This document shows, piece after piece, positions 24,964 to 40,750 of a stretch of 64,000 bases of DNA (within the stretch, counting starts at the first letter, position 1; every line of letters starts with the position of its first letter). The notes beneath the pieces were generated by a model. The model did no database searches. It worked only from the letters and a program-made list of their open reading frames with translations, and had not been told where the DNA came from. The stretch is from Polyangiales bacterium (GTDB lineage Bacteria; Myxococcota_A; Polyangia; Polyangiales; Ga0077539): NCBI GenBank assembly GCA_046351515.1, contig JAXLYJ010000005.1, forward strand, positions 306,892-370,891, given 5' to 3'. The position numbers and the translations under genes are program-made.

Positions 24964-25139
24964 TTGCGCTCCGAGGTTCCCGCGCACGTCAGTGGAACCT
25001 CCGCTCTCGAGAAACGGTTCTCGAGAGTCGTCGAAGTGACCCCCTCAAGTTTGATCGCTCCGAAGCGCACACCGAAGCAGTTGAATACGTGGGCGTGAAA
25101 TTCGGGGCCTGAAGAAGAGTTCAAAAGGAGATTCTCAAA

Positions 25140-25517
25140 ATGGAAACGCAGCAGCTCGTCGACACGATCAGCAAGCTCACCCTCAAGCAGGCGGCGGACC
25201 TCGCGGCCGAGCTCAAGAAGTCGCTCGGACTCGAAGGCATCTCCTTCGGCGGCGGCGGCGGCGGCAACGCGGCTCCGGCCGCGGCGGCTGCTCCGGTCGA
25301 GGAGAAGACGGAGTTCACCGTCGAGCTCACCGGCGCTGGCGCGAAGAAGATCGACGTCATCAAGGTTGTCCGTGAGATCACCGGACTCGGCCTGGGCGAG
25401 GCGAAGGCTCTCGTCGAGGGCGCGCCGAAGGCTCTCAAGGAGAACATCGGCAAGGCCGAGGCCGAGGACATCAAGAAGAAGCTCGAGGGCGCTGGCGCCA
25501 CGGTCACCCTCAAGTGA
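25140..25517 (+). CDS. rplL: 50S ribosomal protein L7/L12
   Basis: 125 aa. Gly/Ala-rich hinge and [30 protein letters not shown]-terminal domain. Confidence 0.95.
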
Positions 25518-25581
25518 TCCGAGCCCGTCGCAGGCGTTTGCTGAGTGAGCATTCACTGAGCTCGTGACCGGCGACACTGTA

Positions 25582-25660
25582 GAGGCGACGCAACGTGAGC
25601 ACTCGTGATGAGCGAGCGCGAGCGGGGTGTCGCCTCTCTGCTTTTCTCCCGCAGCGCTCG
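25582..25660 (+). terminator. Possible bidirectional terminator between convergent rplL and the sulfotransferase gene (8-bp inverted repeat gaggcgac/gtcgcctc followed by tctgcttttctcc)
   Basis: Inverted repeat plus T-rich tract seen directly. The loop is large, so the structure is uncertain. Confidence 0.25.
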
Positions 25661-25682
25661 CCACGGTCGTCGCGCGGGCAAA

Positions 25683-26876
25683 CTACGACGTCGAGCGCCG
25701 CTCGAACGGCTCGAGGCGACGACGCAGCGTTTCGTCATCGAGGCCGAAGTCGCTGAGCGCGTGCTTGTGCGCGCCGTGCCGGTGCTTGGGATGCTCGGCC
25801 GCGTACCGCCTCGCGTCGGCGAAATGCGCCTCGCCCCAGCCCATCGCGAAGCGCTCGTTGATCGCGCGAACGACGGACACTGGATCGCTCGTCAGCGCTT
25901 CGTACTCGACGTCGAGCCGCTGTTCAGCAGGCAGCCACGATCGTGCTTCGAGCGACGCGCGCAGGGTGCGTTCGCAGTGATCGAGCGCCTCCCGCCCGAC
26001 CGCGCGCGGGTCGGACTCGCGCACGATCGGCAGGCGAACGCCGTGAATCAAGCTGCACAACGACGAGACGCACGCGTCGAGCGCGCGGTGGCACTCGACG
26101 ATGCGCGCGTCGGGGTACGCCTCGATCAGCGCTCGCAAGAACAACACGTGCGAGGGATCTTTGAGCACCCACGTTGGTTGCTCGTCCCGCTGCCAGAGCT
26201 GCAGCAGCGATCGATGCTCGCGGTACGCGAAGCTCACATCTGCGGTCGCGAGCCAGCGCTGATAGCGCTCGGCGGGGGGGCTCGCGGGGAAGATTCCGCT
26301 GTTCTCGAGGATGAAATGGCACTCGTCTGGGCTCGTCGCTTCGACGTCGTGGATGAGCCGGACGTGAGGCGCCGCTGCGTAGAAGAGCGCCATGTCACGC
26401 GCGCACTGCTCGACGCGGTCGTCGTCAGCGCGGTCTGCGATGGGGCGATACAGCTCGAACAGCTTCGGCGAGCGCGCTCCCTCGATCGAGGCCAACATGC
26501 GCTGCAACAGCGTGGTGCCCGTTCGAGGCAGGCCGAGGATGAAGATCGGCGGCGCGATCGGGCGTGTGGATCCGGCGGCCGATCGCGCGCGCTCGACGTG
26601 CAGCCGATTGATTAGCGCGCGCAACACTCCCTGCCGTGTGAGCTTCGCTCCGAGCCACGTGAGCTGGTCGGTCTCAGCGACAGACTCGAGCAGCAGTTGG
26701 ATCGGTGTCTCGAAGTCGCGCGCGCCGAAGTCACTGAGATTCGTCACACGCCGCGCTTCGGCGCAGAGCTCGTCGAGCGTGGATGAGTTGGTGTTCAAAC
26801 CGATTCGTCGGCCTTGTTCGAGGACGGTGTTGGCGACGCGAAACCATCGCGGAAGATCGCTCTTTTGCCAGGTCAT
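25683..26876 (-). CDS. Sulfotransferase-family protein (PAPS-dependent, Sulfotransfer_3-like)
   Basis: 397 aa. ILGLPRTGTTLLQRML is the 5'-PSB PAPS-binding loop. Later RxxxDP and HRALDACVSS regions are consistent with bacterial sulfotransferases. Confidence 0.65.
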   Translation of the reverse strand: MTWQKSDLPRWFRVANTVLEQGRRIGLNTNSSTLDELCAEARRVTNLSDFGARDFETPIQLLLESVAETDQLTWLGAKLTRQGVLRALINRLHVERARSAAGSTRPIAPPIFILGLPRTGTTLLQRMLASIEGARSPKLFELYRPIADRADDDRVEQCARDMALFYAAAPHVRLIHDVEATSPDECHFILENSGIFPASPPAERYQRWLATADVSFAYREHRSLLQLWQRDEQPTWVLKDPSHVLFLRALIEAYPDARIVECHRALDACVSSLCSLIHGVRLPIVRESDPRAVGREALDHCERTLRASLEARSWLPAEQRLDVEYEALTSDPVSVVRAINERFAMGWGEAHFADARRYAAEHPKHRHGAHKHALSDFGLDDETLRRRLEPFERRSTS

Positions 26877-27072
26877 CTGTTGTCCGAGGGAGTCTTTGCG
26901 GCTGCACGGATCGCCGCCGTTCGCGCACGCGCCGCTGTGCGGCGTCGCTCGATGATCGTCGCGAGTGAACCATCTTCATCATCAACGCGAGCGCGTTCGT
27001 AACGATCGGAAATGCCGCGTCACGCGCTGTTCGCGCTCGACGCTCGCGTGTTGCGGCATACGCGCAGTCACG

Positions 27073-28461
27073 GTGTTTACGTCGCTCTTCAAGCGCTCGA
27101 ATCGCGCGTCGCTCCCGCGGGTCGCGCGACTCTCATCGAAGGTCCTTCACGCTGCCGTCGACGCGCACGGCGCGCACGCGTGGGCGGTGCTCGCGCGTGA
27201 GCACGGCGGCTCGTTTGTGGCATCGACGGGCGAGCTCTGCACTGCCGAGCCCGCGCTCGTCGAGTCGTTCTTGATGCACCGCGCGCACACCGAACACCGC
27301 GCGAAAGCGTACCGGCTCGCTGCGAAGGCGATGCCCGGCGCGGACGGGCTGCTCTTTCAAGACGGAGAGCCGTGGAAGGAGCAGCTCCGCGCGGTGATGC
27401 CGATCTTTCATCACGAGCGCATCGACGCGTTTGCGGCGACCGTCGCAGACACGCTTCGCACGTTTGCGCGACGCGCTCCCGATGGAGCGGACCTGTACCA
27501 CGCGATCACCGAGGCGAGCGCGGAGATCGCGCTGAAGGTCCTGCTCGGGCTCGATCCAGCGAGCGGTCCGGGCCTCGCGGTTCGCGAGCAGCTCGTTTCG
27601 TACAAGCTCGAGACGATGCGCGTCGATCGTTCGATGCGACTCGATGTGCTCGGCGGTCCGCCGATCGAAGCGGTGCTCGCCGCGCCGCGCGTCCTGCGCT
27701 CGATGCTGACGTTGCGCGATCGAGTGGCGATCATTCGCGACGAGCTCGCGCGAGCGAGGCGCGCCGGGATGCTCGATGACACGATCGTCGCGGTCGCCAA
27801 CGTCGCCGCGGACGAGCAGCGCTTCGCGGATTGGATCAATCACCTGTACGGCGCGTACAACGCCGTCGACTACGAGCTCACCGCGGCGCTCGTGTGCCTC
27901 GCGCGTGCGCCCGAGTGGATCGAGGCGCTGCGAGACGAGCTCGACGCGCAGCCGGCCGCCGCTCGCGCGGATCATCGCTCGCTCGCTGCGCTGCCGGTGT
28001 TGCGCGCGATCGTGCGAGAGACCGAGCGCGTGTGCCCCGTCGCAAACGCCGTGTTTCGTCAGGCGGGAGAGCGCTTCGAGTGCCAAGGCGAGTCCTTCGC
28101 CGAGGGCACGCAGGTGATGCTCAACCTCTATGCGCTCATGCGTCACCCTGACCATTGGGAGGAGCCGGATCGGTTCGACCCGAGCCGCTGGATCGGTGAG
28201 CGCGAGGCGAAGATCGCGGAGCGAGCGTTTGTTCCATTTCTCGCGGGGCCGCGACGATGCTTCGGGCGGACGCTGGCCGAGCTCGTGTTGCACGTCGGGC
28301 TGTCGACGATCGTGCGCGAGTTCGACGTCGTTGCGCGCGCCGATGGCGTCGACGTCACCGGACATTTCATCCCGAGATTCGAGCGCCCGATCGCGTTCGA
28401 GTTGCGCGAGCGCGTGAGCTCACCCTCGTCGATCGGCTCGCGCTCCGCGGATCGATGCTGA
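27073..28461 (+). CDS. Cytochrome P450
   Basis: ORF 26965..28461. FVPFLAGPRRCFGRTLAELVL is the heme-thiolate loop (FxxGxRxCxG). ETERVCP is the ExxR K-helix motif and AVDYELTAA is I-helix-like. Start uncertain: GTG at 27073 is proposed. Confidence 0.8.
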   Translation: MFTSLFKRSNRASLPRVARLSSKVLHAAVDAHGAHAWAVLAREHGGSFVASTGELCTAEPALVESFLMHRAHTEHRAKAYRLAAKAMPGADGLLFQDGEPWKEQLRAVMPIFHHERIDAFAATVADTLRTFARRAPDGADLYHAITEASAEIALKVLLGLDPASGPGLAVREQLVSYKLETMRVDRSMRLDVLGGPPIEAVLAAPRVLRSMLTLRDRVAIIRDELARARRAGMLDDTIVAVANVAADEQRFADWINHLYGAYNAVDYELTAALVCLARAPEWIEALRDELDAQPAAARADHRSLAALPVLRAIVRETERVCPVANAVFRQAGERFECQGESFAEGTQVMLNLYALMRHPDHWEEPDRFDPSRWIGEREAKIAERAFVPFLAGPRRCFGRTLAELVLHVGLSTIVREFDVVARADGVDVTGHFIPRFERPIAFELRERVSSPSSIGSRSADRC

Positions 28462-29804
28462 GCAGGTCGGCCATGACGAGTGACTCTGTCGTTCGGGCGA
28501 GCGCGACCGCGCGGCGCTCTGCGCTGTTTGTGTGCATTCCGCTCGTGGGGCACTGCAACCCGTTGATCGCGCAGGCCAAGGCGCTGCGCGCGCGTGGATT
28601 TCGCGTGGCGATCGCGTCGTTCGCCGAGCTGCGCGCGCACGTCACCGCCGCGGGCGTCAGCTTCGTCGACCTCGGGCCCACGCCCGGAGGCGCGACGGCG
28701 ATGAGCGATGTCTTCGAGCGAGCGAGCGCGGCGCGGAGCTTCTTCGCCTCGTCGAAGTTGCTGCTCGAGTGGACGCTCTCGCTGTGGACGCCGCTGTTCG
28801 ACGCGCTCGTCGCGCAGATGCGAGTCGACCGTCCGTCGGTCTTGATCGCGGACCTGATGACGAGCGGAGCGATGGACGCCGCCGAGGCGCTCGACGTGCG
28901 GCTCGTGGTCAACAACGCCGACCTGCTGCCGGCGCTTTCGCTAGGGCTTCTGCCGGTGGCGGACGATGTTCCGCCGCTGTTTTGGGGGCGATCGAGGCGC
29001 TCGATCGGCGCCAAAGAGAAGCTCGCGATCGCCGCCCTTCGATCGATCGCCGTCCGTGAAGCGACCCGCACGGTGGGCGCGACCTTGAATCAACTGCGGC
29101 GGAGTCGAGGGCTGTCGGCGCGCGATGTACACGCGCGGCTCGCGGGAACGTTTGTGATCACGAATTCAACGTTCGCCATCGAGTACCCGCGTCCGTTGCG
29201 GGCGAGCATGGTGATGCTCGGACCGATGCTCGATCGCGACGAGCCTCGGGAGCTCGGCGAGCTCGGCGACTGGTTGAATCGCCCGGAGCCGGTCGTGTAC
29301 GCGAACCTCGGGACCATCGTCGCGCCTGACCGTGCGCTGCTCGATCGGATGAACGACGCGTTTGCGAGGCTCTCTGCGCGGGTCCTGTGGACGCTGCGCC
29401 CTGCGCTGCGCGAGCGATTGCGGCGGCCGGTGGCGAGCAACGTTCGGCTCGTCGAGCGCGTGCCGTCGATGCGAGCGGTGCTCGCGCACGAGCGGGTTCG
29501 TGCGTTTGTGAGTCACTGCGGCGTCAACTCGGCGCACGAGTCGCTGTGGGAAGGGTGCCCCATCGTGGGGCTCGGCGTGTTCGCCGACCAAGACGACATG
29601 GCGTGGAGAGTCGAGGACGCGGGCGTCGGCGTGAGGCTCGATTCGCGCAAGGCGAGCGCGATCGAGATCGCTTCGGCGATCGAGCGCGTGATGCGCGACG
29701 AGTCGATGCGCGCGCGCGCTCGCGAGGTGCGCGCGAGCTTCGAGGCAGCCGGCGGGGCAGAAATGGCGGCGTTGCTCATCGAGCAGTGCGCCGCGCGCGA
29801 ATGA
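28455..29804 (+). CDS. GT1-family UDP-glycosyltransferase (macrolide-GT/CrtX/Rgt-like)
   Basis: ATG overlaps the P450 stop by 7 nt. N-terminal FVCIPLVGHCNPLIAQAKAL and C-terminal FVSHCGVNSAHESLWEGCPIVGLGVFADQ (PSPG-like donor box) are GT1/MGT signatures. Confidence 0.8.
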   Translation: MLSRSAMTSDSVVRASATARRSALFVCIPLVGHCNPLIAQAKALRARGFRVAIASFAELRAHVTAAGVSFVDLGPTPGGATAMSDVFERASAARSFFASSKLLLEWTLSLWTPLFDALVAQMRVDRPSVLIADLMTSGAMDAAEALDVRLVVNNADLLPALSLGLLPVADDVPPLFWGRSRRSIGAKEKLAIAALRSIAVREATRTVGATLNQLRRSRGLSARDVHARLAGTFVITNSTFAIEYPRPLRASMVMLGPMLDRDEPRELGELGDWLNRPEPVVYANLGTIVAPDRALLDRMNDAFARLSARVLWTLRPALRERLRRPVASNVRLVERVPSMRAVLAHERVRAFVSHCGVNSAHESLWEGCPIVGLGVFADQDDMAWRVEDAGVGVRLDSRKASAIEIASAIERVMRDESMRARAREVRASFEAAGGAEMAALLIEQCAARE

Positions 29805-29820
29805 AAGACAGAGAGGAACA

Positions 29821-32079
29821 GTGACGATGAGCGACGAGCTTGCCCGCGGAACAGCGGCGATTCCTTCGGACTGGCCTGGGCGAGGGCCGATCGACCTCGC
29901 GGTGCACGACCTGCCTCACGCTTCGTCTTCGGTCGAGTGGTGGTACGTCAACGCGCACGTCGAGACGGACAAGGGCGCGAAGCTCTCGGTGTTCGCGAGC
30001 TTCTTCGTCGTGACGGTGTCCGACGAGGACGCCGCGCGAACGGGCAGCAAACATCGGCACTTCGTGACGTGGGCGGTGATCGACCCCGAGCGCAGAGCGT
30101 ACGTGGCCGAGGCGCTGCTCGACCCGAAGACGCCCGCCGATGGCATCGAGCGGCTCGATCGCGGAGAAGGTTCGACGGACGTCCGAATTCGGCGCGCGAT
30201 GAGGGAGATGTTCGAGCGAGGAGGCGTTCCGAAGCCAGATCGTCTGCTGCGCACATCGAGCGTGGCGACGGATCGACTGGCGATCGCGATGGACGCGCAG
30301 CGGTTTACGAAGCTCGACGACGGGAGGTATCGCTTGGAGCTCGCGTCGAGCGACGGCGCGACGGGCGCGACGCTCGATTTCTCCCTCGAGAAGCCGGTGA
30401 TTCGCCACGGAGACGACGGCGTCGTCGCGGGCTTCACGGTGAAGCGAATGTTCTACTACTTCGTTCCTCGCTGCGGCGTGAGCGGCACCGTTCGCGTCGC
30501 GGGCGAAGAGCAGCGCGTGGTGAGCGGTCGCGGCTGGTACGACCACGAGTTTGGCGAGCACGCGTCTGGCGCGGCCGGCAAAGAGCAGTCCGTCGCGTGG
30601 AACTGGATCTCAGCGCAGCTCGATGACGGCACCGACGTGAGCGCGTACGAGACCTACGACGAGGGCGATGGAAACAAGCCGCTCGAGCGCCGCGTGGTGA
30701 TCATTGCCGCGGACGGAGCACGCACGGTGCACAGTGATTTCACGCTCGAATCGTCGGAGCCGTGGACGAGCACACGCACGTTCAACGCGTACCCGACGCG
30801 TTGGAAGCTCACGGTGCCTTCGGCTGACCTCGTGATCGACGCGCGCGCGGCGTTCGTGGCCCAGGAGTTTTGCACGCTGCTGTCCCCGCCGGCGTTTTGG
30901 GAGGGACGCATGGACATCCGCGCGAATCGCGCGGGCATCGAGGTGCAAGGCGTCGGGTTCGTCGAGCGGTCGGGGATGCAAGAGTCGACCACGCTCGATC
31001 GCTTCTTCACTGCGGTCGGTCGCGAGTCGCGTCGCGCGGTGGATCAGCTCATCCCGGCGAGGCTCGAACGGCAAGACCTCGTGCGACTGTTCGCGAGCGA
31101 GCGTCACGCGGATCACATGAACGGGGTCGACGCCGAGCAGCTCTCGGCGGTGCTCACTCGTCCGGTTCGCGACATCGCGCTGCGCGGCGGAAAAGCCTGG
31201 CGCTCGTTCGCGCTGCTCGCCTCGCTCGACATGGTGGGCGGCGACTCCGAGCGGCACCGGCACTGGCTCGCGTTTCCTGAGCTGCTGCACACGGGGAGCT
31301 TGATCCTCGACGACGTTCAGGATCGAAGCGAGGTGCGTCGCGGCGGTCCGTCGCTGCACCGGTTGATCGGCGAGCCGCTCGCGATCAACGCGGGCAGCGC
31401 GTGCGCGTACCTCGCGCTGCTCGTCGGGCTGAAGGACGAGATGACGGCGGACGTTCGCGTGCGCGTTCACGAAGAGTTCTTTCAGGCGCTTCGCGCGGCG
31501 CACGCGGGGCAGGCGCTCGACATCGCAGGGTTGCATCACTTGCTTCCCGTGGTCGTCGAGAGCGGCGACGGAGCGCTGCTCGAAGAGCGGGTGAGGGCGA
31601 TCCATCGACTGAAGTCTGCGATTCCGCCGGCGGCGCTCGCGCGCGCGGCGGTGCACATTGCCGGAGGAACGCGGGAGCAAGAAGCGGCGCTCGACGCGCT
31701 CTTCGACGCGTTCGGCGTGGCGTTTCAAGGGATGGACGACGTGCTCAACCTCCGCGGCTTCGAGGGCAACCTCAAGGATCGCGGCGAGGACGTCGCTGAA
31801 GGAAAGGTCACCGCGCCCGTGGCGAAGGCGATGAGCCGGCTCGCGCTCGAGGGGCGCCGCGAGCTGTGGGCCATTCTCGATTCGAGCACGAGGGACCGCG
31901 CGAAGATCGACCGAGCGATCGCGTTGATGGAGTCGTGCGGCGCGATCGACGCGGTCGAGCAAGAAGCGCGTTCGTTGATCGAGACGACGTGGGAGCGCGT
32001 GGCGCCGGTGTTCGAGGACTCGCTCTCGAAGCTGATGATCCGCTCGTTCGGCTGGTACATCCTCGAGCGGCACTACTGA
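29821..32079 (+). CDS. Fusion protein: N-terminal CrtC/AttH-like carotenoid 1,2-hydratase-like lipocalin domain plus C-terminal trans-polyprenyl diphosphate synthase domain
   Basis: GTG start with AGAGAGGA RBS. N-terminal SVEWWYVNAHV...SFFVV matches the CrtC/AttH signature. C-terminal LILDDVQDRSEVRRGGPSLH (FARM), GQALD, FQGMDDVLN (SARM variant DDxxN) and AEGKVT match the isoprenyl diphosphate synthase fold. Confidence 0.65.
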   Translation: MTMSDELARGTAAIPSDWPGRGPIDLAVHDLPHASSSVEWWYVNAHVETDKGAKLSVFASFFVVTVSDEDAARTGSKHRHFVTWAVIDPERRAYVAEALLDPKTPADGIERLDRGEGSTDVRIRRAMREMFERGGVPKPDRLLRTSSVATDRLAIAMDAQRFTKLDDGRYRLELASSDGATGATLDFSLEKPVIRHGDDGVVAGFTVKRMFYYFVPRCGVSGTVRVAGEEQRVVSGRGWYDHEFGEHASGAAGKEQSVAWNWISAQLDDGTDVSAYETYDEGDGNKPLERRVVIIAADGARTVHSDFTLESSEPWTSTRTFNAYPTRWKLTVPSADLVIDARAAFVAQEFCTLLSPPAFWEGRMDIRANRAGIEVQGVGFVERSGMQESTTLDRFFTAVGRESRRAVDQLIPARLERQDLVRLFASERHADHMNGVDAEQLSAVLTRPVRDIALRGGKAWRSFALLASLDMVGGDSERHRHWLAFPELLHTGSLILDDVQDRSEVRRGGPSLHRLIGEPLAINAGSACAYLALLVGLKDEMTADVRVRVHEEFFQALRAAHAGQALDIAGLHHLLPVVVESGDGALLEERVRAIHRLKSAIPPAALARAAVHIAGGTREQEAALDALFDAFGVAFQGMDDVLNLRGFEGNLKDRGEDVAEGKVTAPVAKAMSRLALEGRRELWAILDSSTRDRAKIDRAIALMESCGAIDAVEQEARSLIETTWERVAPVFEDSLSKLMIRSFGWYILERHY

Positions 32080-32099
32080 GCGAGAGCGAGAACGACACC

Positions 32100-33143
32100 G
32101 TGATCGCGACATCGCTCAGCGCTGAGGACGACCTTCGCCACGCACACGGCGACGATCCTCACTGGAACGAATCGTTCTATTTCAATTTCTTCGACGCCGA
32201 CCGCGGCCTCGGCGGCTTCACGCGCATCGGGTTTTCTCCGTCGCGCGGCGTGGTGGACATGGTCCTGTGTGTCTATCGCCCGAGCGGCGGCGTGCTCGTC
32301 GTGCGCAGGGTCGCGCCGTTTTCAGCGCTGAGTGAGCGGCGCTCGCTCGTCGAAGTGGGGCCGCTGCGATTCGAGTGCGTCGAGCCTCTGCATCGTTGGC
32401 GGCTGTTCTTCGCGGGCGACGCGTTTTCGATCAGCGATCCAGCGGTCGTGCTCGCCCTGACGAGGCACGGGCTCGTGGATGTCGCGCGGGCGGGGCTCGC
32501 GATCGATCTGGAGTTTACCGCGCTTCATCCAGTGTACGTGTTTCCGAAGCTGCCGCAGCGGAGGATGTCGCTCGGCGAGTCGCTCGGCGCTCGGCGGTCG
32601 TTTGGGGACATCGTCGCGCGGGCCAGGAGGGTTCCGGCGCGGCTCGCGAGCGCCGTGAAGATGCGAGACAACCATCACTTCGAGCAGGCGGGGCGCGTGC
32701 GCGGGCTCGTCGCGATCGACGGCGAGCGAGTCTCGATCGACGGCACGGGGATGCGCGATCGATCATGGGGCCTTCGCGATTGGACGGTGCCCACGCGCTG
32801 GTGGTGGATCAACACGCAGTTCGGCGACGACCTCGCGTTCAACGCGTTTCGCATTCACCTGTTCGGCTACGACGCGTGGGGCGGCTACGTGTGGAACAAC
32901 GGTCGTCTCAGCACGCTCGGCGATTGGAAGCGCCACGAGCGACAAGACGGCACCGCGTTGCTCACGTTGCCCGCCGAAGACGGCGCGGTGCACGAAGTGA
33001 TCGTCGAGCGACTCATGCCCGTCCCGTTCTCGATCAGCGAGCCCGGGTTCGACACGGTGCTCGACGAGGCGATCGCGAGGTTTCGATGGAACGGGCGGGC
33101 GTCGCTCGGCATCGACGAGAAAATGGAGCGTGTTTTTCCATGA
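32100..33143 (+). CDS. Hypothetical protein, possibly second CrtC/AttH-like beta-sandwich domain protein
   Basis: ORF 31866..33143. Proposed GTG 32100 start just after the upstream stop. HWNESFYFNFFD...WWWINTQFGDD aromatic-rich beta motifs. Its stop overlaps the next start (ATGA). Confidence 0.4.
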   Translation: MIATSLSAEDDLRHAHGDDPHWNESFYFNFFDADRGLGGFTRIGFSPSRGVVDMVLCVYRPSGGVLVVRRVAPFSALSERRSLVEVGPLRFECVEPLHRWRLFFAGDAFSISDPAVVLALTRHGLVDVARAGLAIDLEFTALHPVYVFPKLPQRRMSLGESLGARRSFGDIVARARRVPARLASAVKMRDNHHFEQAGRVRGLVAIDGERVSIDGTGMRDRSWGLRDWTVPTRWWWINTQFGDDLAFNAFRIHLFGYDAWGGYVWNNGRLSTLGDWKRHERQDGTALLTLPAEDGAVHEVIVERLMPVPFSISEPGFDTVLDEAIARFRWNGRASLGIDEKMERVFP

Positions 33144-35830
33144 GCATCCTGATCGACCTCTCGAGCGAGCGCGCGCGTGACGTCGCGCAGGTGGGTTCGA
33201 AGGCCTGCTCGCTCGCCTCGCTCGCGCGCGAGGGCTTTCGGGTCCCCGCCGCGGTGGTCGTCGACAGCGCAGCGTTCGACCGCGCGATCGACGCGCTGGG
33301 CTTGCGCGAGGCGCTCGTCGCGCTGCACGAGGACCGCTCGATCGACGAGCCATCGCTGCGCGAGCGAGCGACGGAGATCCAAGCGTGCATCCGCCGCTCG
33401 AGCCTCGAGCCACCGCTGATCGACGCCGTCCGCGCGTGGGTCACCGACGAGAGCGCTCGTTGGGCGGTGCGCTCGTCAGCGATCGCCGAGGACCTCGGCG
33501 ACGCGAGCTTCGCGGGCGTGTACGAGTCCGTGCTCGGAGCGCGGGGAGCGGACGCGGTCATCGACGCGATCCGGCAATGTTGGGCGTCGTTCGTCTCTGC
33601 GCATGCGATCTCGTATCGAAGGCGGCACGCGACGACGAACTTTCGCGGCGCGGTCCTCGTGCAGGCGCTGATCGACGCGGATGCTGCAGGCGTCGCCTTC
33701 ACGCGAGAGCCGACGACGGGCGCGACGGACGTCGTCGTCATCGAGTCGACGCGCGGTCTGGGCGAGGCGCTCGTCTCGGGGCACGTCTCGCCGGACGCGT
33801 TTTGGGTGCGCAAGCGCGACGGGGTGATCCTACGATCACGCATCGTCGAGAAGCGCTCGGCGACGAGGCTCGCTCCGCAGGGAGTCGAGCTCGTGGCGCT
33901 CGATGAGCGTCAGTCTTTCGCTGCGTCGATTGACGATCGAACGGCGCGCGCGATCGCCGCGGTCGCAACGCAGATCGAGCGTGTTCGCGAGCGCTGCGTC
34001 GACGTCGAGTGGGCGACGGCCGGCGGAGCGCTGTGGGTGCTGCAGGCGCGCGCGATCACCGCGGGAGCGTCATCGCAAGACGCGCGGACCAGCATCGACG
34101 TGAGCGACGACTTCGTCCCTGCGTTGCAGAGCAAAATCGATCCGCGCTTCGTCTGCTACTCGCGAGGAAACATCGGCGAGGTGCTCCCTGGCTGCGTGAC
34201 CCCCCTCGCGTTCAGCTTGTCGGTCCCGCCGCTCGAGCATGCGTTTCGGTCGATGGGCGCGAGCACGGGAGTGCTCCCGGCGCTCGGCGAAGAGCCGGTG
34301 ATCCTCGGGATGTTCTTTCATCGGTTGTACTTGAACGTGAGCGTGTTTCTCGCGATGGCCGACGCCTCGCCGGGAGCGTCACGAGACGCCGTGTACGAAG
34401 AGCTCGTCGGGCCAGTGAGCGAGCGATCGTCGGCGTTCAAGTGGAGCGACCTTCGACCGTCGCGCATCAAGCAAGGCCTGCGCGTGTGGGGCGCCGCGCT
34501 CGCGCAGGACAAGCGCGCGGAGTCCGACCTGGCCGAGTGCGTGCGCGAGCTCGACCGAGAGCGAGCGAGGATCGACGAGTTTCCTCCAGAGCAGTGGGCG
34601 TTGGATCGATTTGTGTCCGAGCCGCTGCTGGTCGCGAGGCGCTCGCGCGCGGTCGACGTTCACATCGTGATCTCGCAGGGGGCGTCGTCGAACTATCGAT
34701 TCTTGAAGGAGCAGTGCGCGAAGCACCTCGGCGACGAGCGCGGCTCGCTCGCAGCGTTGTTGGTCTCGGGAATCGGCTCGCTGGCGAGCGCGGATCCTGC
34801 GGTCGCGATCGACACGCTCGCGCGAGAAGCGCTCGCGCACGCGACGGTCCGGGCGCTGTTCGAGCACGAACACGACGATCGAGCGCTGTGGTCCGCGCTG
34901 CAAGCGAGGCGAATGAGCGACGAGGGGGCCGCGGCGTTTCTGCGCGCCTTCGAGGTGTTCTTGGTGAGGCACGGGCACCGAGGCGTGGGCGAGGGAGATT
35001 TTCGCAACGCGACGTGGCGCGAAGAGCCCCCGCGCGTGCTCGCGTTCGTGCGTGCGCAGCTCGCGACGGGCGGCGTCGAGGCGAGCGCGCGGCTCGATCG
35101 GCAGCGCGCGTTGGCTGAGCGTGCTCGCGCAGAGAGCGCGGCGCGGATCGGCGCGTTGAGTCGATCGGTGTTCACGGCGGTGCTTCAGGGCTCGCTGCGG
35201 TACCTGCGCCTGCGCGAAGAGAGCAAAGACGTCGTGATGCGCTTCGGTGATCTGACGCGTCGAGTGGTGCGCGCGTTGAGCGCGCGGCTGGTCGAAGCGC
35301 AGCGGCTGCACACCGAGGACGACGTGCACTTTTGCACGGTGAACGAGCTGCTCGCGATGGCGAGGGGCGAGCTCGACCGAGAGCAGATCGAGTCGATCGT
35401 GGCTGCGAGGCGGGCGGACTTCGCTAGGTGCGAGGCGATCGACGTTCCCAAGCTGATCGAGGGAAGGGCGCGGTGGATACGCGCGCAGGCTCGAGAGGCT
35501 CCGTCGGGGGCGCTCGCGGGGGTGGCGGCGAGCGCAGGCGTCTTCGAGGGAACCGCGCGGGTGCTGAGCGATCCGTCCGACGGAGCGCGGCTCGAGAAGG
35601 GCGACGTGCTCGTCGCGCCGGTGACCGACCTCGCGTGGACGCCGCTGTTTTCACGGGCGGGCGCCGTGGTGGTCGAGGTCGGCGGGCTTCTGTCCCACGG
35701 CAGCGTCGTGGCGCGCGAGTACGGGCTGCCGGCGGTCGTGGGCGTCGCCGGAGCGCTCGGGGTGATTCGCGATGGCGCGCGCGTGCGGGTGGACGGCGAT
35801 CGCGGCGAAGTGACGGTGCTCGCCCCCTGA
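33140..35830 (+). CDS. PEP-utilizing-enzyme family phosphotransferase with rifampicin-phosphotransferase-like architecture (PPDK_N ATP-grasp, central domain, C-terminal phosphohistidine swivel domain)
   Basis: ATG 33140 inside ORF 32375..35830. N-terminal VGSKACSLASLAREGFRVPAAVVV...WAVRSSAIAEDLGDASFAGVYES is the PPDK/PpsA N-terminal ATP-binding domain. C-terminal GDVLVAPVTDLAWTPLFSRAGAVVVEVGGLLSHGSVVAREYGLPAVVGV is the mobile His domain. There is no C-terminal TIM-barrel, which resembles rifampicin phosphotransferase (Rph) rather than PpsA. Confidence 0.7.
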   Translation: MSILIDLSSERARDVAQVGSKACSLASLAREGFRVPAAVVVDSAAFDRAIDALGLREALVALHEDRSIDEPSLRERATEIQACIRRSSLEPPLIDAVRAWVTDESARWAVRSSAIAEDLGDASFAGVYESVLGARGADAVIDAIRQCWASFVSAHAISYRRRHATTNFRGAVLVQALIDADAAGVAFTREPTTGATDVVVIESTRGLGEALVSGHVSPDAFWVRKRDGVILRSRIVEKRSATRLAPQGVELVALDERQSFAASIDDRTARAIAAVATQIERVRERCVDVEWATAGGALWVLQARAITAGASSQDARTSIDVSDDFVPALQSKIDPRFVCYSRGNIGEVLPGCVTPLAFSLSVPPLEHAFRSMGASTGVLPALGEEPVILGMFFHRLYLNVSVFLAMADASPGASRDAVYEELVGPVSERSSAFKWSDLRPSRIKQGLRVWGAALAQDKRAESDLAECVRELDRERARIDEFPPEQWALDRFVSEPLLVARRSRAVDVHIVISQGASSNYRFLKEQCAKHLGDERGSLAALLVSGIGSLASADPAVAIDTLAREALAHATVRALFEHEHDDRALWSALQARRMSDEGAAAFLRAFEVFLVRHGHRGVGEGDFRNATWREEPPRVLAFVRAQLATGGVEASARLDRQRALAERARAESAARIGALSRSVFTAVLQGSLRYLRLREESKDVVMRFGDLTRRVVRALSARLVEAQRLHTEDDVHFCTVNELLAMARGELDREQIESIVAARRADFARCEAIDVPKLIEGRARWIRAQAREAPSGALAGVAASAGVFEGTARVLSDPSDGARLEKGDVLVAPVTDLAWTPLFSRAGAVVVEVGGLLSHGSVVAREYGLPAVVGVAGALGVIRDGARVRVDGDRGEVTVLAP

Positions 35831-35842
35831 GCGCTGCGCGGC

Positions 35843-36190
35843 TCAGTTCTGCTGGCTCGCGGGCAGCTGCTCGGCCATGAACTCGAGCCCCTGACGGGTG
35901 ATGAGGAAGCGGACCGTTCCGGTTCCGCGCTCGGTGTCGATCGTGGCTTCGAAGGCAGGGCCGCCGACGGTGCCGAGCATCATGTCGCGTCGGAGGTTGT
36001 CGATCTTGCCCTGAACGAGCGGAGCGTTGATCTTGGCGCTGCCTGTGTCCGTTCGGTACAAGTCCCAAGCGGCGTCGAACAGGATGCGAGCGAGCGAAGA
36101 GCTGAGCGGCTGTGTGCTGAAGAGCACGGAGATCAGCCGCCATTTGAAGTCGTCGTCGGGGGAGGGGGCGTCGTTCGAGTCGTCTTGCAT
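35843..36190 (-). CDS. Hypothetical small protein (115 aa) upstream of and divergent from rpoB
   Basis: ORF only. No motifs recognised. Codon usage is consistent with the genome. Confidence 0.35.
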   Translation of the reverse strand: MQDDSNDAPSPDDDFKWRLISVLFSTQPLSSSLARILFDAAWDLYRTDTGSAKINAPLVQGKIDNLRRDMMLGTVGGPAFEATIDTERGTGTVRFLITRQGLEFMAEQLPASQQN

Positions 36191-36559
36191 TGGGCGACAG
36201 AATCACTGTGAGAATTTCGAGGAAATCACGGGGACCGCAAAGAGCGGGCCAGGGGGGCTTGCACGCGTGGTGCGGCCGGGTTAGAAGGCCGCTCCCTCGT
36301 ACTTGCCAGTGTTGTCACTGACGAGGCCGAGTCCGTTAGCCCTGAACTGGAGGAGACGAGAGGCCGCAGCAGAAGCGTTGCAAGTCGACAGCATCGCCCG
36401 ACCGATCGTCCGAGTCATACTACTCCGAACGGAACCGGCGCGCCGCAGCGAAGAAATCGCCTGAAAATCTTCAGGCAACTTCACGCTGCAGCACGGTTGC
36501 CGACCCTTGTGAGCTCTTCTCGCTGAGCCTCTCTCTCCCGACCCGTGCAGAGAGGATCC

Positions 36560-40750
<4,191 letters not shown>

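Follow-up and report, generated by a model that had tools for sequence, protein, structure and literature searches.

A conserved bacterial protein family in which an AttH/CrtC-type barrel is fused to a prenyl chain synthase

Introduction

Why would a bacterium make a barrel of the carotenoid hydratase type and a prenyl chain synthase as a single polypeptide? The question is raised by a gene at 29821..32079 (+ strand) in a stretch of Polyangiales DNA (contig JAXLYJ010000005.1, assembly GCA_046351515.1); the whole stretch analysed, 64,000 nucleotides long, is called the window below. An earlier note, made from the letters of this DNA, had described the gene as an unusual fusion of a CrtC/AttH-like hydratase domain with a polyprenyl diphosphate synthase domain. 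Both halves belong to known superfamilies, and the new part is their fusion, which is predicted to be rigid. To our knowledge, the prenyltransferase fusions studied so far pair a chain synthase with canonical α or βγ cyclases and are almost all fungal. In the family described here a different catalytic fold, the acid-catalysis barrel of AttH and CrtC, is joined to a synthase resembling geranylgeranyl diphosphate (GGPP) synthases, and the family is large, being present in about 500 bacterial species from at least four phyla. We give an even chance to the reading that the protein is a bifunctional chain synthase and hydratase which starts the formation of a glycosylated and/or sulfated terpenoid lipid.

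The fusion is one gene of a conserved family

Counted from a GTG, the gene has 752 codons followed by a stop codon. Translation probably begins at the ATG at 29827, which gives a protein of 750 aa, since GAGAGGA lies 9 nt upstream of this ATG and the 91% identical homologue P0001 begins there. An exact-sequence look-up of the window protein gave no record. Three Pfam domains are present, each above its curated cut-off: CrtC (PF07143, aa 38–245, E = 2e-18, 67.9 bits against a cut-off of 22.5), Lipocalin_9 (PF17186, aa 255–383, E = 3e-20, 73.3 bits against 26.2) and polyprenyl_synt (PF00348, aa 444–703, E = 7e-42, 143.9 bits against 27), the last matched over its full profile (positions 3–251 of 251). 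The co-occurrence of PF07143 and PF00348, for which the earlier note had suggested to search, was recovered in one genuine protein, and its assignment of the N-terminal part to CrtC/AttH and of the C-terminal part to the polyprenyl diphosphate synthases holds. The motifs it had named are also all there. Specifically, EWWY is at aa 39–42, the FF(V/R) signature at aa 58–63 (FASFFV), the first aspartate-rich motif (FARM) DDVQD at aa 497–501, GQ..D at aa 563–567 (GQALD), the second aspartate-rich motif (SARM) DDVLN at aa 639–643 and EGK at aa 660–662.

The same note had named a frameshift or an assembly error as what might have joined two separate genes. The G+C content of the window is ~67%, and that of the three codon positions of the fusion gene (GC1/GC2/GC3) is 0.69/0.50/0.84, the pattern of a real gene, which runs unbroken across the domain junction. 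Moreover, hundreds of independent homologues, from isolates as well as from metagenome-assembled genomes (MAGs), agree in length and keep the junction. An artefact, to which we assign practically no probability, is ruled out by the unbroken coding-frame signal together with the collinear homologues, among them one in the complete genome of Sandaracinus amylolyticus (10.3 Mb).

A search of 5.8 billion proteins gave 829 matches to the fusion protein at E ≤ 1e-5. The best 120 of these 829 carry all three domains each in 713–803 aa, and their identity to the window protein is ~47–55%, except for one at 91%. When 31 of the best 120 were aligned they proved collinear end to end, junction included, and the family alignment of 32 sequences has ~130 invariant columns. 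With the N-terminal 400 aa as the query, 136 representatives were found at E ≤ 1e-30 among 1.84 billion cluster representatives. Judging by length, 67 among the best 150 matches listed for this query have at least 720 aa, i.e. are fused, and apparent stand-alone barrels (~400 aa) occur among the matches listed only at ~30% identity.

In a scan of 185,579 genomes, one for each GTDB species, a relative of the fusion is encoded in 497. The architecture, which the earlier note had not recognised as a standard one, is that of a conserved family and not peculiar to one genome. Myxococcota make up the majority of the 497 carriers (Polyangiales, Kofleriaceae, Nannocystaceae and S. amylolyticus). The others include Cyanobacteria (Pseudanabaena, Cyanosarcina), Bacteroidota (Spirosoma panaciterrae, Telluribacter humicola, Chitinophaga), Vicinamibacterales, Terriglobia (Acidobacteriota being among the carrier phyla) and Gemmatimonadaceae. 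Several MAG records with this Myxococcota-like gene (L006, L019, L021, L027 and L030) are titled Bifidobacteriaceae, Enterobacteriaceae or Klebsiella pneumoniae; such titles look unreliable, and the taxonomic conclusions make no use of them. Public annotation gives the family proteins only names such as "polyprenyl synthetase family protein", and the full-text literature searched, with subscription-only papers outside its scope, held no paper on an AttH/CrtC–prenyltransferase fusion. The family is widespread in soil and water bacteria and appears to be unstudied.

The synthase half keeps the residues of chain elongation

The trans-isoprenyl diphosphate synthase domain (aa 444–703) is encoded at 31150..31929 (+), with the FARM at 31309–31323 and the SARM at 31735–31749, and the C-terminal half has the all-α isoprenoid synthase fold. 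In all 32 aligned sequences K458, R461, H490, D497, D498, D501, R506, R507, K598, D639, D640, N643, K652 and K662 are invariant, and these residues cover all positions of the synthase half that bind isopentenyl diphosphate (IPP), the allylic diphosphate and Mg2+. The basic ones (K458, R461, H490, R506, R507, K598, K652 and K662) pair with human GGPS1 in an alignment for which the GGPS1 sequence was confirmed to be 100% identical to PDB entry 2q80.

The earlier note had regarded DDVLN as an altered SARM and as a possible sign that the reaction is prenyl transfer or cyclisation and not chain elongation. Both DDVQD and DDVLN are invariant in the 32 family members, the final Asn included. In the alignment to human GGPS1 (30% identity over 209 residues) FQGMDDVLNL of the window protein pairs with FQIRDDYANL. 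Because DDVLN aligns with the DDYAN of an ordinary chain-elongating enzyme, it is a normal motif and not an altered one, and the step from an altered SARM to non-canonical chemistry is ruled out by this alignment. A DDxxN SARM is regular both in the eukaryote-type (type III) GGPP synthases and in fungal bifunctional terpene synthases, within their prenyltransferase domains, and all of these elongate chains in the ordinary way. Where a synthase-derived enzyme has gained new chemistry, this is usually marked by the loss of the binding residues listed above, which the fusion family retains. As all elongation residues are invariant, ordinary chain elongation by the synthase half is to be expected.

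Our comparison set, which takes in archaeal and bacterial GGPP synthases and long-chain synthases as well, includes the type III GGPP synthases human GGPS1 (2q80) and yeast Bts1 (2dh4). Like these, the fusion has a FARM of the form DDxxD without insertion, a SARM of the form DDxxN, small residues at −4 and −5 before the FARM, and the motifs RRG, GQxxD, K(T/S) and EGK. The type III enzymes are stand-alone hexamers or dimers, whereas the synthase of the fusion is joined to an AttH domain.

Regarding the length of the chain, the segment that forms the floor of the product pocket was located through the family alignment and through the alignment to NYVYFL of human GGPS1; in the window protein it is CAYLAL (31402..31419, +). 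The family consensus INAGxACYFLA retains Tyr-Phe at the floor in most members. In yeast Bts1 Tyr107/Phe108 is the floor that halts elongation at C20. Since the Tyr-Phe floor is kept, as in the type III GGPP synthases, C20 is our best guess for the product of the family. At this place Ala-Tyr is found instead in the window protein and in the relative that is 91% identical to it, and for that reason the window protein may make a chain longer than C20.

The barrel half resembles the hydratases of the AttH superfamily

The N-terminal half has the AttH double-barrel fold. It folds like AttH and kievitone hydratase, and the AttH protein 2ich is its only solved relative by sequence. The first barrel, of the CrtC type, is encoded at 29932..30555 and the second, the Lipocalin_9 barrel, at 30583..30969 (both +). 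Within the first lies the motif GWYDHEFG (30532..30555, +), whose invariant Asp241 is the proposed Brønsted acid of the hydratase half; W239, H242 and E243 are likewise invariant in the 32 sequences. GWYDHEFG pairs with WLDREW of AttH 2ich. It also pairs with GMRDRSWG in the product of the open reading frame (ORF) downstream of the fusion gene, which in turn pairs with GSRDRSWG of 25-phosphosteroid lyase (25-PSL), and a D-to-N variant of the RDRSWG Asp of 25-PSL has been deposited as 9g4c. The invariant aromatic residues of the barrel are W40, W41, Y42, Y212, Y213, W239, W260, W262 and W360.

In CrtC (numbering of R. gelatinosus) His239, Trp241 and Tyr266 are essential, and a mechanism like that of squalene-hopene cyclase has been proposed, in which the double bond receives its proton from an essential Asp (PMC4717167). 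Judged by the motif, D241 is probably the equivalent of CrtC Asp268. The characterised close relatives are CrtC, kievitone hydratase and the archaeal synthase of hydroxylated glycerol dialkyl glycerol tetraethers (Hgs), and each of them forms a tertiary alcohol by hydration of an isoprene C=C (bioRxiv 10.1101/2025.10.20.683597; PMC4717167). Given the invariant Asp of GWYDHEFG, the many invariant aromatics and these hydratases as close relatives, the hydratase half of the fusion looks catalytic. CrtC has some activity on C20 geranylgeraniol and none on shorter chains (PMC6013536), which would fit a substrate of C20 or longer for the barrel half.

The fusion has in common with the CrtC/AttH superfamily, kievitone hydratase (7a0q) and Hgs included, the acidic Asp in G-x-(W/Y)-x-D with aromatic residues around it. 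It differs in being joined to a prenyl chain synthase, in lacking a carotenoid gene context, in being predicted to be cytoplasmic with neither a signal peptide nor lipoprotein features, and in a family-specific helical insert of ~40 residues. This insert (roughly aa 100–150) does not align to AttH 2ich. On the predicted model DSSP places its helices at 104–113 and 121–132, and D101, D120, E129, P137, P139 and D140 in it are invariant.

AttH 2ich has been described as a lipocalin-like lipid binder (PMC2954199), and the barrel could accordingly be non-catalytic, a binding or hand-over domain which passes the product of the synthase to a membrane protein or a glycosyltransferase (GT). A polytopic membrane protein is in fact a conserved neighbour in 21/83 loci. 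We hold this to be quite improbable: at 47–55% overall identity D241, H242, E243, E39, D101, D140, E349, E361 and E382 are all invariant, and this set includes the Asp common to the enzymes of the superfamily.

Another possibility is that the barrel uses its acid to close rings. It would then be a Brønsted-acid terpene cyclase or rearrangement enzyme, class II-like or PenF/AsqC-like, acting on a C=C of the synthase product or on an epoxide provided by a neighbouring P450 or FAD enzyme, and the fusion would be a prenyltransferase-cyclase with a new fold. The mechanism proposed for CrtC is itself modelled on squalene-hopene cyclase (PMC4717167), the superfamily holds PenF/AsqC, which carry out cationic epoxide rearrangements on prenyl chains (PMC6013536), as well as the pericyclases CghA and Fsa2, and genes for P450s and FAD_binding_4 oxidases recur near the fusion gene. 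On the other hand, the nearest relatives of known function, both in structure and in sequence, are hydratases, and no known member cyclises a linear polyprenyl chain. The links to GTs and sulfotransferases described below fit a new hydroxyl group as acceptor, although a cyclised alcohol would fit them equally well. On balance we regard ring formation or rearrangement by the barrel as unlikely, yet as the most serious competitor of hydration.

The two halves are predicted to form one body

The AlphaFold2 model of the whole fusion chain has a mean predicted local distance difference test score (pLDDT) of 90.8 and a predicted template modelling score (pTM) of 0.89. In the model the last barrel strand stops at aa 384, and a connector of ~7 residues separates it from the first helix, which starts with aa 392. 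From there, conserved helices (aa 392–454) run on into the synthase fold. The short connector and the pTM of 0.89 predict a fixed two-domain body and not a flexible tether. Such rigid packing of the halves suggests that the product is handed over directly from the synthase to the barrel.

A close analogy is with the fungal prenyltransferase-cyclases (the fusicoccadiene synthase PaFS, variediene synthase and the copalyl diphosphate synthase PvCPS). The order is the same, with the downstream-acting domain N-terminal and a GGPP synthase-like prenyltransferase with DDxxN C-terminal, and so is the presumed logic, in which the chain is made and processed on one polypeptide. The N-terminal domain is a β-barrel of the AttH fold in the fusion and an α class I or βγ class II cyclase in the fungal enzymes; the connector is short and predicted to be rigid in the former and a long flexible linker in the latter; the hosts are bacteria and fungi, respectively. 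There is no class I (DDxxD/NSE) or class II (DxDD) cyclase domain in the fusion. Its N-terminal domain being a β-barrel, it falls outside the bifunctional terpene synthase family.

Some relatives are longer. In P0186 (1078 aa) and P0212 (1029 aa) the three domains are preceded by a GT1 domain. In P0175 (1513 aa) and P0183 (1496 aa) Sulfotransfer_3 stands at the front, followed by ~550 residues with faint similarity to GT-B enzymes and then by the three domains. These GT1- and sulfotransferase-bearing fusions are the strongest evidence that the enzymes act on one molecule. A further protein, P0182, carries a PX domain at its N-terminus and a degenerate synthase domain and is possibly eukaryotic.

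Gene neighbourhoods point to tailoring of a terpenoid

In the window the fusion gene is part of a block of ~10.2 kb (25683–35830) inserted between rplL (25140..25517) and rpoB (36545..40750). The block begins with a divergent sulfotransferase gene (25683..26876, −; Sulfotransfer_3, Pfam E = 1e-35), of which a 68% identical gene has the same position in L086, the contig of the relative with the 91% identical fusion protein. It is followed on the + strand by a cytochrome P450 gene of uncertain start (26965..28461; Pfam p450, E = 3e-40), which in L086 is also kept upstream of the GT gene, and by a GT1 gene of the UDPGT/macrolide-GT type (28473..29804; Pfam UDPGT and EryCIII-like_C, with an NCBIfam match to the MGT subfamily below the cut-off). 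After the fusion gene come a gene for a DUF7065+DUF7064 protein of AttH-like fold (32100..33143, +; Pfam) and one for an 896-aa protein with PPDK_N and PEP-utilizers domains (33140..35830, +; Pfam), a phosphotransferase of the Rph/PigC/PEP-synthase kind. With spacings of −4 to +21 nt, the five + strand genes have the appearance of a single operon. In L086 the order sulfotransferase–P450–GT–fusion is the same, and both there and in L004 the fusion gene comes after the same GT gene. A promoter and terminator scan of 25000–37000 gave counts no higher than in shuffled sequence.

As to the gene starts, the longest ORF of the GT gene begins at 28257 and the likely start is near 28473. The starts of the GT and P450 genes are probably further downstream than those of the longest ORFs, as the L086 homologues are shorter (431 aa, 384 aa). 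The additional portions of the longest GT ORF (28257..28472) and of the P450 ORF (26965..~27300) overlap or extend upstream.

To compare neighbourhoods, the ORFs of 83 loci were clustered all against all, with association counts made by jackhmmer, and a Pfam census covered 335 ORFs that lie no more than 3 kb from the fusion gene in 82 loci. A GT-B glycosyltransferase gene lies within 3 kb in 14/83 loci, mostly adjacent and on the same strand, and these loci span Myxococcota, Acidobacteriota, Cyanobacteria and Bacteroidota. Frequent companions of the GT are an FkbM methyltransferase (10 loci), a P450 (8), an LMF1-like membrane protein (5) and an FAD_binding_4 oxidase (4). UDPGT is the commonest Pfam family of the census. 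Genes of precursor supply are also found within 3 kb: IspH in 3 loci, mevalonate diphosphate decarboxylase and HMG-CoA reductase in 2 loci each. Together with the fused GT and sulfotransferase domains, the neighbours suggest that Myxococcota, Cyanobacteria and Bacteroidota make an as yet unknown class of lipids, hydroxy-terpenoids bearing sugar or sulfate.

A glycosylated hydroxy-terpenoid could also be a carotenoid. The fusion would then unite CrtE and CrtC, two non-consecutive enzymes of one pathway, and the GT and methyltransferase neighbours would lead to 1'-hydroxy-carotenoid glycosides of the myxol/myxobacton type. The fungal fusion of phytoene synthase and lycopene cyclase is an analogue, the natural substrates of CrtC are C40 carotenoids, and GT and FkbM methyltransferase genes are indeed neighbours of the fusion gene. 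Moreover, Myxococcota, Cyanobacteria, Bacteroidota and Gemmatimonadota are known to make hydroxylated carotenoid glycosides, some with methylated sugars. Nevertheless, neither SQS_PSY (phytoene synthase) nor Amino_oxidase (desaturase) is among the census families shared by at least 2 of the 335 ORFs (best 25 per batch), and neither enzyme is found among the 21 other ORFs of the window. The cluster stands alone between rplL and rpoB. The predicted rigid packing of the two domains (pTM 0.89) also speaks against a CrtE–CrtC pair, and the sulfotransferase fusions, the P450s and the pair of kinase and phospho-lyase are foreign to carotenoid pathways. A carotenoid cluster is not supported: no crtB or crtI was seen among these recurrent families or the other ORFs of the window, and genes of precursor supply (IspH, mevalonate) and of tailoring were found instead. 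We therefore consider a carotenoid role improbable.

In ~21/83 loci, from Kofleriaceae, Nannocystaceae and Polyangiaceae, the gene immediately downstream encodes a polytopic membrane protein of ~600 aa with invariant ADDH, DDARGP and NRN motifs (e.g. L062:10796-12595, L057:12251-14002, L083:4253-6028). It has no match in Pfam, NCBIfam or PDB and could be a GT-C-like transferase. The LMF1 (lipase maturation factor)-like membrane proteins are of ~760 aa and stand beside the fusion in Bacteroidota, in one cyanobacterial and in one myxobacterial locus (L053:12246-14528, L068:7360-9654, L084:12249-14552, L034:6906-9155, L008:7506-9869).

A proposed reaction sequence

If the protein is a chain synthase and hydratase, the substrates and the order of the steps would be as follows. 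From IPP and an allylic diphosphate the C-terminal domain would build an all-E polyprenyl diphosphate of C20 or somewhat longer; conservation strongly supports this elongation step. The barrel would then take up the hydrophobic tail of the chain, or of a dephosphorylated or transferred form of it. Asp241 would protonate a trisubstituted C=C and water would be captured, yielding a tertiary alcohol, as homology to the hydratases leads us to infer. Finally, the P450, GT1 and sulfotransferase would decorate the hydroxylated isoprenoid to a glycosylated and/or sulfated terpenoid lipid. This tailoring step is supported by the adjacency of the genes and by the domain fusions.

It is important to note the points that weigh against this sequence. 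The literature searched holds no biochemical data for any member of the fusion family. The data show what the domains are, how they fold, what is conserved and which genes and fused domains accompany them; the substrates (the diphosphate itself or another form), the chain length, the site of hydration and the order of the steps are inferred. At the spacing expected for His239, Trp241 and Tyr266 of CrtC the fusion has Y212, F214 and W239, which are aromatic and not identical, in a comparison made by spacing and not by direct alignment with a CrtC sequence. The AttH superfamily contains non-hydratases too, namely Diels–Alderases, the epoxide-rearranging PenF/AsqC (PMC6013536) and a phosphate lyase. 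The synthase reaches no product-specific equivalog cut-off of NCBIfam (16 matches, all far below; the best, IdsA_Meth, has 117.9 bits against a cut-off of 468), so that the chain length stated above is a deduction. Many genomes, for example that of S. amylolyticus, have the fusion gene without tailoring neighbours, and in the 21/83 loci the ~600-aa membrane protein is the neighbour instead. For these two reasons the end product may differ between clades.

The downstream lyase-like and kinase-like genes

The earlier note had called the ORF at 32100..33143 a second CrtC/AttH-like ORF. The AttH-like fold stands; the CrtC label does not, as Pfam gives DUF7065+DUF7064. The product is a distant member of the AttH superfamily, from the DUF7065/7064 (Rv3169-like) family, and the Asp of RDRSWG is present in it. 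A protein encoded in a Polyangiales MAG is 100% identical to it. Its best sequence match in PDB is 25-PSL (9fzn, E = 3.5e-6), ahead of AttH (E = 0.034), and the identity to 25-PSL is 26% over 263 structurally aligned residues. On the side chain of cholesterol an ATP-dependent kinase first phosphorylates a tertiary alcohol, and 25-PSL then eliminates phosphate from the tertiary phosphoester so formed (PMC8449060, PMC11061730). By this similarity the ORF is a candidate tertiary phosphoester lyase.

The start of the kinase-like gene (33140..35830) overlaps the stop codon of the lyase-like gene in ATGA, which indicates translational coupling. The pairing of a DUF7065/7064 gene with such a kinase gene is kept in unrelated contexts (L088, L089 and L090). 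In L087 and L090 the gene directly upstream of the lyase-like gene has the C-terminus of the fusion family (...FQIVDDVLNLRGFEG...LRAFGWYVLQRHY), so the order fusion, lyase-like gene, kinase recurs in a subclade. In L087 it is just the C-terminal ~130 aa of a fusion-family gene that is found upstream of the DUF7065/7064 gene (L087:7399-7992); the place expected for the remainder is taken by a Rieske oxygenase gene on the opposite strand, and this is either a truncated remnant or a chimeric assembly. Genes for APH-type phosphotransferases, the family of 25-hydroxysteroid kinase (25-HSK), occur near the fusion gene or the lyase/kinase pair in L066:3796-5151 and L090:4799-6154.

As in the 25-HSK/25-PSL system of Sterolibacterium denitrificans (9fzn), which dehydrates a tertiary isoprenoid alcohol at the expense of ATP and has so far been known from no setting but the anaerobic degradation of cholesterol, a lyase-like protein is here encoded next to an ATP-dependent phosphotransferase. 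The kinases differ, with a PPDK_N/PEP-utilizer (Rph/PigC-like) protein in the window and an APH-type enzyme in S. denitrificans, the context is biosynthetic (synthase, GT, P450) in the window and steroid catabolism for 25-PSL, and the similarity is weak. In this subclade only, the kinase probably transfers phosphate to an alcohol of the same scaffold, and the lyase-like protein would then eliminate it to give an alkene. The weak but specific similarity and the conserved coupling of the two genes are what suggests this additional step.

The two genes allow a bolder thought as well. The fusion, the kinase and the lyase-like protein together could be a new route by which terpene skeletons are built or reshaped, with the AttH fold as a third, β-barrel class of cyclase or isomerase. 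A tertiary carbocation would be generated at the ω end of a newly made polyprenyl chain, through protonation by the AttH Asp and/or through ATP-driven phosphorylation of the resulting tertiary alcohol and elimination of the phosphate. Either rings would then close from the tail, or a double bond would move in the contra-thermodynamic direction. Such a route would differ from the known ones in using neither the ionisation of a diphosphate (class I) nor a DxDD acid (class II). If this were true, the AttH fold would be hard-wired as a cyclase or isomerase to its own prenyltransferase. We hold it to be a long shot.

Other features of the locus

The position of the kinase-like gene, ~700 nt upstream of rpoB, brings rifamycin resistance through Rph to mind. 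This explanation was set aside. The NCBIfam match to Rph has 348.6 bits where the cut-off is 999, models of PEP-synthase-like proteins, PigC and RedH fit the protein just as well without reaching their own cut-offs, and the DUF7065/7064 partner is conserved elsewhere. With the score so far below the Rph cut-off and the pairing conserved in other contexts, a link of the kinase-like gene to RNA polymerase inhibitors is unlikely.

The surroundings of the block are otherwise standard (tuf-nusG-rplKAJL-rpoB-rpoC), and the gap between rplL and rpoB (25518..36544) is an unusual site for accessory genes. Between the kinase-like gene and rpoB lies a small ORF on the opposite strand (35843..36202, −) of 119 codons from stop to stop, with a GC3 of 0.85.

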